The position numbers and the translations under genes are program-made. Positions 4,850 through 13,823 of a DNA stretch of 64,000 nucleotides are shown here, piece by piece; the first letter of the stretch is position 1; every line of letters starts with the position of its first letter. The DNA comes from Nitrospinota bacterium. GTDB lineage: Bacteria > Nitrospinota_A > UBA7883 > JACRLM01. The notes under the pieces are model-generated. The model was not told where the DNA came from and did no database searches. It worked only from the letters and a program-made list of their open reading frames with translations. The stretch is taken from contig JACQXA010000004.1 in assembly GCA_016208975.1 (NCBI GenBank), positions 681,015 to 745,014 of the forward strand, written 5' to 3'.

Positions 4850-4999
4850 GGCAGTGTCCCGGTTTGATAACATGGGATAGATTCTTCGCTTGCGCTCAGA
4901 GTGACAACATAAAAAACCTTTGATACATTCTTATCCTGAACATAGCGTAAGCGAAGTGGATGTCTGTCCATTAATCGGGATTAAAACCGGGACACTACC
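4850..4999. repeat. MITE-like palindromic repeat, divergent copy A
   Basis: Terminal inverted repeats ggcagtgtcccggttt ... aaaccgggacactacc; internal cttcgcttgcgctcag / agcgtaagcgaag arms shared with copies at 38536 and 56918. Confidence 0.5.
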
Positions 5000-5013
5000 C
5001 TAAAATCGTTCTG

Positions 5014-5041
5014 TTGACAAAACCAGGTGTCATGATAAAGT
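5014..5041 (+). promoter_or_regulatory. Candidate sigma70-type promoter for tRNA-fMet
   Basis: TTGACA (5014-5019), 16 bp spacer, TAAAGT (5036-5041), ~15 nt before tRNA 5' end. Confidence 0.35.
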
Positions 5042-5055
5042 AGTTAATTCGCTGG

Positions 5056-5132
5056 TGCGGGGTGGAGCAGTCCGGTAGCTCGTCGGGCTCATAACCCGAA
5101 GGTCAGAGGTTCAAATCCTCTCCCCGCTACCA
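5056..5132 (+). tRNA. Initiator tRNA-Met (anticodon CAU)
   Basis: Hand-folded cloverleaf: D stem gagc/gctc, anticodon stem tcggg/cccga with loop CUCAUAA, T arm agagg-ttcaaat-cctct, CCA encoded; three G-C pairs closing the anticodon stem, A11:U24 and unpaired 1:72 are initiator hallmarks. Confidence 0.9.
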
Positions 5133-10306: not shown

Positions 10307-10366
10307 AGTATGCGGAAAAAGCGTCCTGTAGTTTTCCGCCGTTTTAACCTCCACCGGTAAAATACG

Positions 10367-13300
10367 ATGATCGAAAAAGTAATAGCCTGGTCGCTGAGGA
10401 ACAGGCCGCTGGTCCTTCTGGGATCGCTTCTGCTGGCGGCGTGGGGCTGGCATTCTTCCCGCCACATGGCGTTGGACGCCATACCTGACCTTTCCGACAC
10501 ACAGGTGATCGTCAAAACCAGCTTCCCCGGCCAAGCCCCCCAGATAGTGGAGGATCAGGTCACCTATCCCCTGGCCACCGCCCTGCTTTCGGCGCCAAGG
10601 TCGGTGGCGGTCCGGGGTTTTTCCATGTTCGGCGAGTCGAACATCTACATAATCTTCGAGGATGGCGTCGACCCCTATTGGGCCAGGGCAAGGGTGAGCG
10701 AATATCTTGGCCAGCTTGCCGGCAGGCTACCGGCCGGGGTGACGCCCTCCTTGGGGCCGGACGCCTCAGGCGTGGGATGGATACTGGAATACGCCATCGT
10801 GGACAGGAACGGCTCCCACAACCCCGATGAGCTTCGGGCCATCCAGGATTTTTATCTGAAGTTCGAGTTGCAAAGTCTTCCGGGGGTGGCGGAGGTGGCC
10901 ACTGTTGGAGGCATGGCGCGGCAGTTCCAGGTTGAAATGGACCCGGACAGGATGACCGCCGCAGGGGTGACGTTGGAAAGCGTGGAAATGGCCATACGGA
11001 ACGCCAACGTTTCAGGCGGCGGCTCTGTCACCGAAATGAGCGGGGCCGAATACATGATCCGCTCCCACGGCCACCTTAAAACATTGGATGATTTCGGGCT
11101 TATATCACTGGGCATAAGCGACTCCGGCTCCCCTATCCTTTTAAAGGACATAGCCAATATACAGACCGGCCCTGAAACGAGGCGTGGCGTGGCGGACCTT
11201 GACGGCGAGGGAGAGGCTACCGGAGGTATAGTGATAATGCGGCCTGGCCAGAACGCCCTGGATATCATCAGCCGTGTCAAGGCTCGGCTTGAGGAGTTGA
11301 AATCCGGCCTGCCGCCGGGGGTGGAGATCGTGATCACCTACGACCGCTCCGGCCTGATCAACAGGGCCATTGACAACCTCACCGGCAAACTGCTGGAAGA
11401 GTCACTGGCGGTGGCGGCCGTGTGCCTGCTGTTTCTTTTCCATCTGCGCTCGTCTCTCGTGGCGGTGGTTACCCTTCCCCTGGGAATTCTTGCCGCCATC
11501 GGCGTGATGCGCCAGCAAGGGGCCCCGGCGGACATCATGTCCCTCGGCGGGATAGCCATCGCCATCGGCGCCATGGTGGACGCCGCAGTGGTGATGATAG
11601 AGAACATGCACAAGAGCATGGAGAAGGCCGCGCCCGGAGAGGACCGATGGGAGATAGTTTACAGAAGCTCGGTTGAAGTGGGGCCAGCGCTTTTTTTCTC
11701 CCTGCTCGTGATAACGGTTTCCTTCCTGCCCGTGTTCACGCTTACGGGCCAGGAGGGAAAGCTGTTCACTCCGCTGGCTTTCACCAAGACTTACGCCATG
11801 GCCGCCAGCGCCGCGCTGGCGATAACGCTCACGCCGGTCCTTATGGGCTATTTTGTCCGGGGCAGGATAGCGCCTGAGTCCGCCAATCCTCTAAACCGCT
11901 TTTTCCAGGCGCTGTACAGGCCAGCTTTGCTTACGTCCCTGAGGCATAAGGGGCGCACCATGGCGCTGGCAATGGCGCTCACCATATCGGCCTTGTGGCC
12001 GGCGGCCAGACTCGGTAGCGAGTTTATGCCTTCGTTGTACGAAGGGGATCTGCTCTACATGCCCACAACCCTTCCGGGCGTGTCGGTGGACGAGGCGGCC
12101 AGGATCACACAAATCACCGACAGGATCATCAAGACCATGCCGGAGGTGGAGCGGGTGTTCGGCAAGGCGGGCAGGGCGGAAACCGCCACGGATCCCGCGC
12201 CTCTTTCCATGCTGGAAACCACCATACTCTTAAAGCCCCAGAGCCAATGGCCCGCGGGCGAAAGCATAGACGACCTTGTGCGCAAGCTGGACGCGGCCGT
12301 TTCCCTCCCCGGCCTTATAAACTCCTGGGGATATCCCATTCGCACGAGGATTGACATGCTCTCCACGGGGATTAAGACTCCCCTGGGGGTGAAAATAACC
12401 GGGCCGGACTCCCAAGGAGTGGCGGATTTGGCCAGCGAGATCGAAATGGTCATCAAGAATGTGAGGGGAACGCGGAACGTGTTCGCCGACCGCGCCGCCA
12501 GCGGCAGGTACATAGACGTGGTTATGGACCGGGCCGAGTCGGCCAGATACGGTGTCAGCGCCGCGGACATTAAGAGGCTTATGGAAAACGCCATAGGCGG
12601 GGAGACCATAGGCTATGTGATAGACGGGCGGCAACGGTTCTCCATCGCCATGAGGGTTCCGCGCTCGTTCCGCGAATCCCCGGAGGCAATAGGCGCCACG
12701 CGCATCTCTACGCCGATGGGAGCGCAGATCCCTCTGAGCCACGTGGCCAGGGTTGAAATCTCCAACGGCCCGTCAGAGATCAAAAGCGAGAACGGCAGGC
12801 TGGCGGGCTATGTGTACATAGACATGGCGGGAAGGGATTTGGGCGGTTACGCCGGGGAGGCCAGGCTGGCCGTGACCTCGAAGATAAAACTCAAGCCCGG
12901 TTACGCTATCACGTGGTCAGGCCAATACGAGAGCATGGAGCGGGCGCGGGAGCGGCTCTATCTGGCGGTCCCTCTGACGCTGGCGCTGGTGTTCATCCTC
13001 CTTTACATGTATTTCCGAAGCGCCGGGAAGGTGGCGCTTGTGCTGTTAAGTCTTCCCTTCGCGCTGTCCGGCGGGCTGTGGCTGGTGTACCTGCTGGGAT
13101 ACAACCTTTCCGTGGCAGTGGCAGTGGGCTTTATCGCGCTGGCGGGGGTTGCGGCGGAGTTCGGCGTGGTGATGATTCTTTATATAGACAACGCGTTCAG
13201 GGAAGGAAGCGGTGGCGATGTAACTTCGGCGGTGATCCAGGGTGCGCTGGCCAGGATACGGCCCAAGATGATGACCGTTACGGTGATAGTGGCAGGCCTT

Positions 13301-13453
13301 CTTCCCGTAATGTTCTCGAGCGGGGCAGGGTCCGACGTGATGAAGCGGGTGGCGGCTCCGCTGGTGGGGGGCATGCTCACCGCGCCGCTACTGTCGTTGT
13401 TCGTCATTCCTGCGCTCTACGCCATATTCATCCGGGGAAAGGGCGATAAGTAG
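10367..13453 (+). CDS. cusA: CusA/CzcA-family heavy-metal efflux RND transporter
   Basis: 1028 aa, 12-TM RND topology, N-terminus MIEKVIAWSLRNRPLVLL... typical of the HME-RND family. Confidence 0.9.
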   Translation: MIEKVIAWSLRNRPLVLLGSLLLAAWGWHSSRHMALDAIPDLSDTQVIVKTSFPGQAPQIVEDQVTYPLATALLSAPRSVAVRGFSMFGESNIYIIFEDGVDPYWARARVSEYLGQLAGRLPAGVTPSLGPDASGVGWILEYAIVDRNGSHNPDELRAIQDFYLKFELQSLPGVAEVATVGGMARQFQVEMDPDRMTAAGVTLESVEMAIRNANVSGGGSVTEMSGAEYMIRSHGHLKTLDDFGLISLGISDSGSPILLKDIANIQTGPETRRGVADLDGEGEATGGIVIMRPGQNALDIISRVKARLEELKSGLPPGVEIVITYDRSGLINRAIDNLTGKLLEESLAVAAVCLLFLFHLRSSLVAVVTLPLGILAAIGVMRQQGAPADIMSLGGIAIAIGAMVDAAVVMIENMHKSMEKAAPGEDRWEIVYRSSVEVGPALFFSLLVITVSFLPVFTLTGQEGKLFTPLAFTKTYAMAASAALAITLTPVLMGYFVRGRIAPESANPLNRFFQALYRPALLTSLRHKGRTMALAMALTISALWPAARLGSEFMPSLYEGDLLYMPTTLPGVSVDEAARITQITDRIIKTMPEVERVFGKAGRAETATDPAPLSMLETTILLKPQSQWPAGESIDDLVRKLDAAVSLPGLINSWGYPIRTRIDMLSTGIKTPLGVKITGPDSQGVADLASEIEMVIKNVRGTRNVFADRAASGRYIDVVMDRAESARYGVSAADIKRLMENAIGGETIGYVIDGRQRFSIAMRVPRSFRESPEAIGATRISTPMGAQIPLSHVARVEISNGPSEIKSENGRLAGYVYIDMAGRDLGGYAGEARLAVTSKIKLKPGYAITWSGQYESMERARERLYLAVPLTLALVFILLYMYFRSAGKVALVLLSLPFALSGGLWLVYLLGYNLSVAVAVGFIALAGVAAEFGVVMILYIDNAFREGSGGDVTSAVIQGALARIRPKMMTVTVIVAGLLPVMFSSGAGSDVMKRVAAPLVGGMLTAPLLSLFVIPALYAIFIRGKGDK

Positions 13454-13823
13454 CGTGAAGGGGCCGGCTTGAGAGCCCCAAACTCGCCACTGGCGGCTTC
13501 CCGTGGAGCGGTGACACAGGAATACTGTTCATACTTTCAACTCTTGCCCTTATCACCTTCTCTTCCGGTGGGGTGATAAATCCCTCCGCAGGCTATGGCG
13601 GAGTTTGGCTTGCGCGGAATGATCTCTTGTTTCCCGGCCATTGGAGATTCTTAGGAGGGTGAGAACCACAGACGGCCCGGGAAAATTCCTTACAAAGAAC
13701 AACATGGAAACCAGTACCGGAACCCAAGCCATGAACCAGCGCCTTCCCCGCGACGATGAGCATGGTTAGAGTATCTTTGCCCGGATGCTAAATGCCGTCT
13801 GACCATTTTGCGGGCGGTAAATG

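Follow-up and report, generated by a model that had tools for sequence, protein, structure and literature searches.

Does a copper-enzyme module that lies beside a tRNA gene in a Nitrospinota genome represent a genomic island? The 64,000-nucleotide stretch of contig JACQXA010000004.1 analysed here (the window) carries genes for a copper nitrite reductase (NirK), c-type cytochromes and a Cus-type copper pump downstream of an initiator tRNA gene, tRNA-fMet. From this arrangement an initial annotation, made from the sequence alone, had suggested that the genes might be horizontally acquired and might have entered as an island at the tRNA. Our analysis gives good support to the horizontal acquisition, but a tRNA-integrated genomic island is not supported. 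We consider the probable history of the block to be an old, since ameliorated, inter-phylum transfer of a functional module, and not a classical tRNA-integrated island.

The block occupies positions 5681–13453 and comprises seven genes, ncgABC, nirK, a small HMBD gene, cusB and cusA, all on the plus strand and separated by successive gaps of 14, −4, 13, 122, 5 and 60 nt (Table 1). This confirms that the nitrite reductase module and the cusBA pair form one co-directional block, and we infer that the seven genes make up a single operon. NirK, whose start we took as 7819 and not as that of a longer open reading frame (ORF), aligns with Nitrosomonas europaea NirK (4kns) across the full mature length and keeps the copper-ligand motifs HSMDFHAAR, YHCGSDPMIQHVARGM, FHPIAG and THSL. 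The copper motifs of NcgA (HTIHWHG, WYHCH and HAIHPHGH) are likewise kept in a full-length alignment to the N. europaea blue copper oxidase, 3g5w. In CusA, alignment to the E. coli protein shows conservation of the Met573/Met623/Met672 triad, with the methionines in LLYMPT, PLSMLE and RIDMLS.

The block is a Nitrosomonas-type ncgABC-nirK cluster fused to HMBD-cusBA. In the account given in PMC5080386, the ncgABC-nirK cluster is known from N. europaea (NE0927–NE0924) and Nitrobacter winogradskyi, and N. europaea owes to it a NirK-dependent tolerance of nitrite, with NsrR acting there as its repressor (PMC5080386, citing Beaumont 2004/2005; PMC4940428). The window holds the same four genes in the same order, with 64–71% identity to N. 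europaea. It differs in that HMBD-cusBA, missing from the Nitrosomonas and Nitrobacter loci, directly follows the cluster, in that it has neither an nsrR gene nor a convincing NsrR operator, and in its host phylum, Nitrospinota. The pump genes resemble E. coli CusCFBA, as CusA is homologous over its full length and shares the Met triad, and the fold family of CusB matches. However, CusC, CusF and CusRS, which the E. coli system has, were found neither in the block nor nearby. The N terminus of the window CusB is a Cys-containing HMBD, whereas the aligned segment of E. coli CusB is Met-rich, and an extra small HMBD protein precedes cusB in the window, unlike in E. coli. An OEP-family gene occurs at 20153–21496, within a neighbouring TetR-controlled RND operon.

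The host of the block is a Nitrospinota metagenome-assembled genome (MAG). An NCBI MAG labelled 'Nitrospinae bacterium' encodes, on a 2.2-Mb contig, proteins with 100% identity to the LptD, NirK and RadA found here. The closest relatives of RadA are all from Nitrospinota (79–64% identity), followed by Nitrospirota and others at 56–60%; its best named proteobacterial match reaches 58%.

To place the block, homologous loci were collected by a scan with NcgA of one genome per GTDB species, which returned 80 loci, and their gene content was read by tblastn of all window proteins. The best NcgA matches reach only 73–76% identity and come from Thiobacillus, Solimonas, Sulfuriferula and gammaproteobacterial MAGs; weaker ones come from Oxalobacteraceae, Cupriavidus, Pelomonas, Nitrosomonas, Nitrobacter and other alphaproteobacteria. 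Every homologous locus keeps ncgABC-nirK. Of 77 proteobacterial loci, 49 have cusB within 2.5 kb after this cluster; five further loci end too early for a decision, and none of those from Nitrosomonas or alphaproteobacteria has the gene. Loci of Thiobacillus, Hydrogenophilaceae, Solimonas and gammaproteobacterial MAGs show the seven genes in identical order and orientation (for example, L010 of T. denitrificans DSM 12475, L019 of T. thioparus DSM 505, and L016). These Thiobacillus-type loci have the highest identity outside Nitrospinota (NcgA 73–76%, NirK 78–82%, CusA 67–70%), with flanks wholly unlike those of the window; by tblastn, the genes flanking the block in the window occur in none of the homologous loci. 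Taken together, the block proteins share 69–82% identity with their counterparts in Thiobacillus and gammaproteobacteria, a level also seen among Proteobacteria themselves. The small HMBD gene lies between nirK and cusB in the three loci checked (L010, L019 and L016) and in the contigs L096–L098, and no outer-membrane factor or cusC follows cusA in five loci (L010, L019, L033, L063 and L016). Because the order is shared, HMBD gene included, and no outer-membrane factor follows cusA, the conserved unit is exactly these seven genes. A search of PLSDB (E ≤ 1e-60) gave no NcgA homologue in plasmids. In the Pseudoduganella (L033) and Cupriavidus (L063) loci, ORFs that by the look of their sequence resemble ResB/CcsA (system II cytochrome c biogenesis) lie 3′ of cusA, which hints at a larger functional neighbourhood in some carriers.

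The two parts of the block tell the same story. Neighbour-joining trees, each with 100 bootstraps and effectively unrooted, were built for ncgABC+nirK (78 taxa) and separately for cusBA (43 taxa). In both, the window pairs in 100 of 100 bootstraps with an orthologous block in a second Nitrospinota MAG (GCA_016235255.1, contig L089), and the nearest neighbours are Thiobacillus, Hydrogenophilaceae and gammaproteobacterial MAGs. As the same pair and the same neighbours emerge from each tree, both halves of the block share one history. Between the window and Thiobacillus, identity is 69–71% for ncgABC+NirK and 69–71% for CusA. Comparable figures are found within the Betaproteobacteria, with 70% (ncgABC+NirK) and 64–65% (CusA) between Thiobacillus and Duganella, and 72% between Thiobacillus and N. 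europaea; the value for Thiobacillus and Nitrobacter is 65%, and for these last two comparisons CusA is not applicable. Since the block shows intra-betaproteobacterial identity while RadA reaches at most 58%, vertical descent from the common ancestor of the phyla cannot explain it. Together with relatives that lack the block and with the differing flanks in the second MAG, described below, this contrast bears out the horizontal acquisition proposed in the initial annotation.

As to direction, the distances, the breadth of carriers, the RadA control and the regulator architecture lead us to infer that the module probably passed from Proteobacteria to Nitrospinota. The reverse, a module ancestral and vertically inherited in Nitrospinota with Proteobacteria as recipients, would fit an unrooted tree in which the Nitrospinota pair is a single branch, and would fit the general presence of nirK in nitrite-oxidising lineages (PMC3578206). 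We nevertheless regard it as highly improbable. Only 2 of 3645 NirK relatives are Nitrospinota proteins, against a wide distribution over alpha-, beta- and gammaproteobacteria; the identity between window and Thiobacillus is of the intra-betaproteobacterial kind, at odds with that of RadA; nsrR and its box are widespread in Proteobacteria and missing here; and Nitrospinota relatives lack the block between LptD and LOG.

A recent arrival would be expected to stand out in composition, and the initial annotation had suggested comparing GC content and codon usage of the block with its neighbours. By Mann-Whitney test of the block genes against the other 48 genes of the window, no significant difference was found in GC (0.585 versus 0.569, p = 0.30) or in GC at third codon positions (GC3; 0.722 versus 0.683, p = 0.35). 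The distance in relative synonymous codon usage to the rest was 0.79 for the block and 1.02 for the others (p = 0.08), again without significance; the block is, if anything, nearer the mean. Block GC3 tracks each host, at 0.74–0.77 in the window, 0.80–0.93 in the nearest proteobacterial copies and 0.53–0.60 in N. europaea. The annotation had held that composition like that of the core genome and conserved synteny of the tRNA with the block would together speak against an island; the first of these two was found.

The second Nitrospinota copy gives a measure of age. It lies on a separate 10.6-kb contig, and its flanks differ, with CheR-TPR and CheW 3′ of the block, while on the other side a divergent ORF starts about 250 nt 5′ of ncgA; the LptD neighbourhood of the same MAG (L087) is without the block. 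Identity between the two copies is 85% for NcgA, 65% for NcgB, 80% for NcgC, 86% for NirK, 48% for the HMBD protein, 57% for CusB and 74% for CusA, against 78% for RadA and 51% for LptD as core genes of the same two genomes. These identities fall within the range of core genes, which points to an old event. The simplest reading is that a single gain before the two Nitrospinota lineages split was followed by vertical descent and amelioration.

Two separate later gains from the same unsampled donor, or passage of the block between the two Nitrospinota lineages, would account for the wholly different flanks and for NirK and NcgA being somewhat more alike than RadA and far more alike than LptD. 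Both MAGs were also assembled from one run series (SRR121133xx–SRR121134xx), and the L089 contig ends at the divergent ORF, a region near which several assemblies break. But CusA, NcgB, CusB and the HMBD protein have diverged as much as core genes or more, the window block is fully ameliorated, the two copies form an exclusive pair in every bootstrap for both block halves, and the closest candidate donor among 5.8 billion proteins reaches only 82% identity. On balance we find this course of events unlikely, and favour the single early gain. The end of the L089 contig (1–330), where the divergent ORF starts with MKNTDGRGLDSKTLTQLRKRAVACVQ..., is a point within about 110 nt of which several independent assemblies break, and it may hold a repeated element. 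A guess that the 26-aa ORF start there might be transposase-like was dropped, as this sequence had no Pfam hit and no match elsewhere.

If the block is foreign, did it enter at the tRNA? The tRNA-fMet itself was confirmed by ARAGORN, by Rfam, whose search gave two tRNAs as sole matches, and by initiator features: an unpaired 1:72 (U.U), G2:C71 and C3:G70, A11:U24, and three consecutive G:C pairs (G29-31:C39-41) in the anticodon stem. A recent island, inserted by site-specific recombination into the 3′ end of this tRNA, would explain why the block starts 548 bp beyond that end on the same strand, why it is foreign by phylogeny, and why relatives have no block at this place. In these respects the locus does resemble islands with P4-type integrases. 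Such islands, however, have an integrase, a direct repeat and a compositional deviation, and the block is without all three. No recombinase or integrase was found with Pfam and NCBIfam among the large ORFs of 1–23 kb, and a P4-type integrase from L087, used as a single tblastn query of limited sensitivity, had no match in the window or among some 80 homologous loci. A search for repeats of the tRNA-fMet 3′ end (14–40-nt segments, up to 11 mismatches in 40 nt) matched only the genuine tRNA-Pro gene, and the partial duplicate that might have been expected near 13454–13823 was not found there. The earlier observation that integrase and tRNA-derived direct repeat are missing thus held in these searches.

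Two further features had lent the island its appeal. The roughly 550-bp spacer between tRNA and block had been described as unusually long and AT-richer. It is indeed 548 bp long and non-coding, with no credible ORF, but its GC of 0.443 is ordinary beside a window intergenic mean of 0.471 (range 0.38–0.58), and only its length, second among 23 gaps in the window, is mildly unusual; the longest gap has 890 bp. Neither the spacer nor the gap to the right of the block showed similarity to the homologous loci or to the rest of the window. The repeat resembling a miniature inverted-repeat transposable element (MITE) on the other side of the tRNA was also verified. Two further full-length copies, 74–77% identical and both intergenic, lie at 38546–38696 and 56918–57068; the likeness of the three copies ends exactly at the terminal inverted repeats, the element folds into a long hairpin (z = −6.3), and no consistent target-site duplication was seen at their flanks. 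The element is a host-wide repeat family and no marker of the block ends.

One set of proteobacterial loci keeps a tRNA in a similar place. In four loci of the T. denitrificans clade (L010, L025, L027 and L028) a tRNA-Arg(ACG) lies on the same strand about 600–700 bp 5′ of ncgA, preceded in L027 and L028 by a tRNA-Ser. These four loci are without an nsrR gene and an NsrR box, and no tRNA-derived repeat was found in the Thiobacillus loci with an upstream tRNA-Arg. The tRNA-Arg is a point in favour of an island. Against it stand the missing integrase and repeat, a composition and codon usage that match the host with a spacer like host intergenic DNA, a MITE-like element that is no boundary, and a divergence from the second Nitrospinota copy as large as that of core genes. 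We therefore judge a recent tRNA-borne island very unlikely, and return to the older transfer.

Gene order in Nitrospinota relatives shows the LptD–LOG interval to be variable. In L086 and L088, whose LptD proteins are 52–53% identical to that of the window, LOG, fumA, fumB and LptD lie within about 1.7 kb, with neither tRNA nor block between LptD and LOG; in L086 a histidine kinase also stands beside LOG. Compared with their counterparts in the window, LOG shows 78% and the kinase 44% identity. In the window, by comparison, 10.1 kb separate LptD from the kinase/LOG pair, the interval holding the 321-aa membrane protein, the MITE-like element, the tRNA, the spacer and the block, while the kinase/LOG pair is inverted and the fumarase genes are missing. 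The synteny of tRNA-fMet and block is not conserved in these relatives, which are distant, and the LptD–LOG interval has been rearranged more than once.

Because the block adjoins a tRNA, the assembly itself has to be considered. All short-read contigs from the same sample series that carry the left flank or the block end within the tRNA, those on the left stopping at about 5086–5103 and those on the right starting at about 5098–5107; in assembly graphs, tRNA-fMet thus behaves like a repeat or a branching point. Might a proteobacterial fragment have been misjoined there, or misbinned? Such independent contigs, ending in the tRNA from both sides, count in favour of a misjoin. Two further MAGs, labelled Acidobacteriota (L008) and Rhizobium (L022), carry Thiobacillus-type blocks that nest tightly within the Thiobacillus clade, and these are likely mis-binned Thiobacillus contigs, or else the result of very recent transfer. 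For the window, an artefact is nonetheless extremely improbable. A 29.6-kb Logan contig runs at 100% identity from the 3′ part of the tRNA through the block to the histidine kinase, LOG and further host genes, ending in tRNA-Pro, and thus ties the block to a LOG gene that is 78% identical to those of Nitrospinota relatives. Moreover, the codon usage of the block is that of the host and not that of Thiobacillus, a diverged copy occurs in the second Nitrospinota MAG, and the genes to either side, LptD on the left and LOG on the right, lie close together in relatives, which a genuine join would lead one to expect.

Several points weigh against an old inter-phylum transfer as we reconstruct it. 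For the sequence across the tRNA the direct evidence is the 2.2-Mb MAG contig, with indirect support from the proximity of LptD and LOG in relatives. All Nitrospinota relatives are distant (LptD about 51–53%, RadA at most 79%), so that some loss of synteny is expected in any case, and an empty site in such relatives does not make a clean before-and-after pair. If the trees were rooted on the Nitrospinota branch, the Proteobacteria would become monophyletic, and topology alone gives no direction. Lastly, the tRNA about 600 bp before ncgA in the Thiobacillus clade leaves some room for a tRNA-linked insertion.

The regulatory region sets the Nitrospinota copies apart from their proteobacterial counterparts. 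In Proteobacteria, 54 loci have an Rrf2/NsrR gene next to ncgA, and in most of them it is the gene immediately 5′ of ncgA, read in the opposite direction. Of 81 regions 5′ of ncgA, 53 hold an NsrR-type palindrome (AAGATRYATTTNAAATRYATCTT) with a score of 18/22 or more; shuffled controls reach at most 17. Most Thiobacillus-type loci have both the divergent gene and a box 35–45 nt 5′ of ncgA, unlike the window. No Rrf2 homologue was found in the 64-kb window, and a tblastn search of the spacer with E up to 100 gave only noise and no remnant or pseudogene of nsrR. The best site in the spacer scores 17/22 with just its right half-site intact (Table 1), and could be what is left of the donor operator, or a coincidence; in the second MAG the best box scores 13/22. 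With neither an Rrf2 gene nor a remnant, and with boxes no better than these, the Nitrospinota copies have kept the structural genes but not the donor control. An FNR/Dnr-type box at 5482–5495, TTGACcaaaGTCAT (TTGAC-N4-GTCAT, a 9/10 palindrome), was not counted as evidence, as the window holds 2 matches where 1.6 are expected. In loci that combine an NsrR box with cusBA, the arrangement would imply control of a copper efflux pump by nitric oxide (NO) or nitrite.

We propose the following course of events. An ancestor of at least two Nitrospinota lineages would have taken up the module from Beta- or Gammaproteobacteria, the Thiobacillus-like copies being the nearest, and the module would since have been fully ameliorated and domesticated. 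The structural genes alone would have arrived; because the donor's divergent nsrR and operator are absent, expression would now have to depend on host signals within the 548-bp spacer. The position after tRNA-fMet may be due to chance, or to later rearrangement in the variable LptD–LOG interval.

The role of the module in Nitrospinota can be sketched by analogy. NirK would be a periplasmic copper enzyme that reduces nitrite to NO, as judged from close homologues, with the cytochromes NcgB and NcgC probably serving as its electron feed and the two-domain multicopper oxidase NcgA predicted to work alongside it. The HMBD protein, CusB and CusA would together deal with copper in this compartment, as a Cu(I) pump driven by protons. 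Having no outer-membrane channel of its own, CusBA may borrow one or release copper into the periplasm.

Table 1. Positions of the block genes and of flanking and regulatory features in the window (a dot in the strand column marks features listed without a strand).
Feature	Position	Strand	Evidence or remark
LptD_2	1435–3714	−	host flank, left
321-aa membrane protein, family not recognised	3879–4844	+	host flank, left
MITE-like repeat, 150 bp	4850–4999	.	16-nt terminal inverted repeats, 94% complementary; inner inverted repeat
Sigma-70-like promoter, TTGACA-16-TAAAGT	5014–5041	+	14 nt 5′ of tRNA-fMet; consensus match only
Initiator tRNA-fMet (CAT)	5056–5132	+	ARAGORN; Rfam tRNA, 65.5 bits; initiator features read from sequence
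Spacer, 548 bp	5133–5680	.	non-coding; presumed promoter/regulatory region of block; GC 0.443
Weak NsrR-box-like site, 17/22	5458–5480	+	right half-site ATATACATCTT, 10/11; borderline, shuffles also reach 17
ncgA, periplasmic two-domain multicopper oxidase	5681–6718	+	Pfam Cu-oxidase_3/_2; best solved relative 3g5w, E = 6e-155
ncgB, dihaem cytochrome c	6733–7422	+	CSGCH and CSACH motifs
ncgC, monohaem cytochrome c	7419–7805	+	CVQCH motif
nirK, copper nitrite reductase, N. europaea class	7819–8760	+	4kns, E = 2e-148; TIGR02376, 198 bits
Small HMBD protein, 87 aa, secreted or membrane-anchored	8883–9146	+	Pfam HMBD (heavy-metal-binding)
cusB-type membrane-fusion protein, N-terminal HMBD	9152–10306	+	E. 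coli CusB, E = 2e-35
cusA-type heavy-metal RND pump	10367–13453	+	TIGR00914, 1185 bits; E. coli CusA 3k07/3t51, 1243 bits
Right-hand gap	13454–13823	.	terminator-like hairpin at 13584–13603; no tRNA-derived repeat
Histidine kinase	13824–15107	−	host flank, right; adjoins LptD region in Nitrospinota relatives
LOG-family gene	15125–15910	−	host flank, right; adjoins LptD region in Nitrospinota relatives

Elsewhere in the window, the only strong compositional outliers are a pair of genes at 44975–47246 on the minus strand, a 369-aa ORF without a Pfam family beside a C-5 cytosine DNA methylase (GC 0.44–0.47, GC3 0.34–0.44). The pair looks like a recent restriction-modification-like acquisition, and makes a stronger case for an island than the nirK block does. 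A low-GC stretch (33000–35900, 0.46–0.51) surrounds tRNA-Pro(GGG) at 34627–34703; the 388-aa ORF that follows this tRNA (34659–35825) was considered as an integrase and rejected, having no Pfam or NCBIfam match. The longest intergenic gap, at 41753–42642 (GC 0.475), extends from a malic enzyme gene to rimO.

With this block, the Nitrosomonas/Nitrobacter-type nirK cluster gains Nitrospinota as a host phylum, for which the module is new. The function of NirK in Nitrospinota is still debated. As an operon that composition-based island detection would miss and that phylogeny and synteny reveal as foreign, the block is a clean example of its kind, and it shows that adjacency to a tRNA together with an AT-rich gap is insufficient evidence for an island. 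The fusion of ncgABC-nirK to HMBD-cusBA is recurrent, and the NsrR box 5′ of ncgA in many loci suggests that copper export belongs to the nitrite/NO response. We put forward, tentatively and as the less likely side of the question, that the seven genes are one horizontally mobile unit in which the channel-less CusBA and the HMBD protein are dedicated to the copper of NirK and NcgA, supplying or clearing Cu(I), and that in the proteobacterial donors NsrR, as a sensor of NO/nitrite, may switch on copper handling. If true, this would tie nitrosative stress to copper export, in regulation and in mechanism, in a way not formulated before, and the module in Nitrospinota would represent a naturally occurring 'regulator-less' form of the arrangement.

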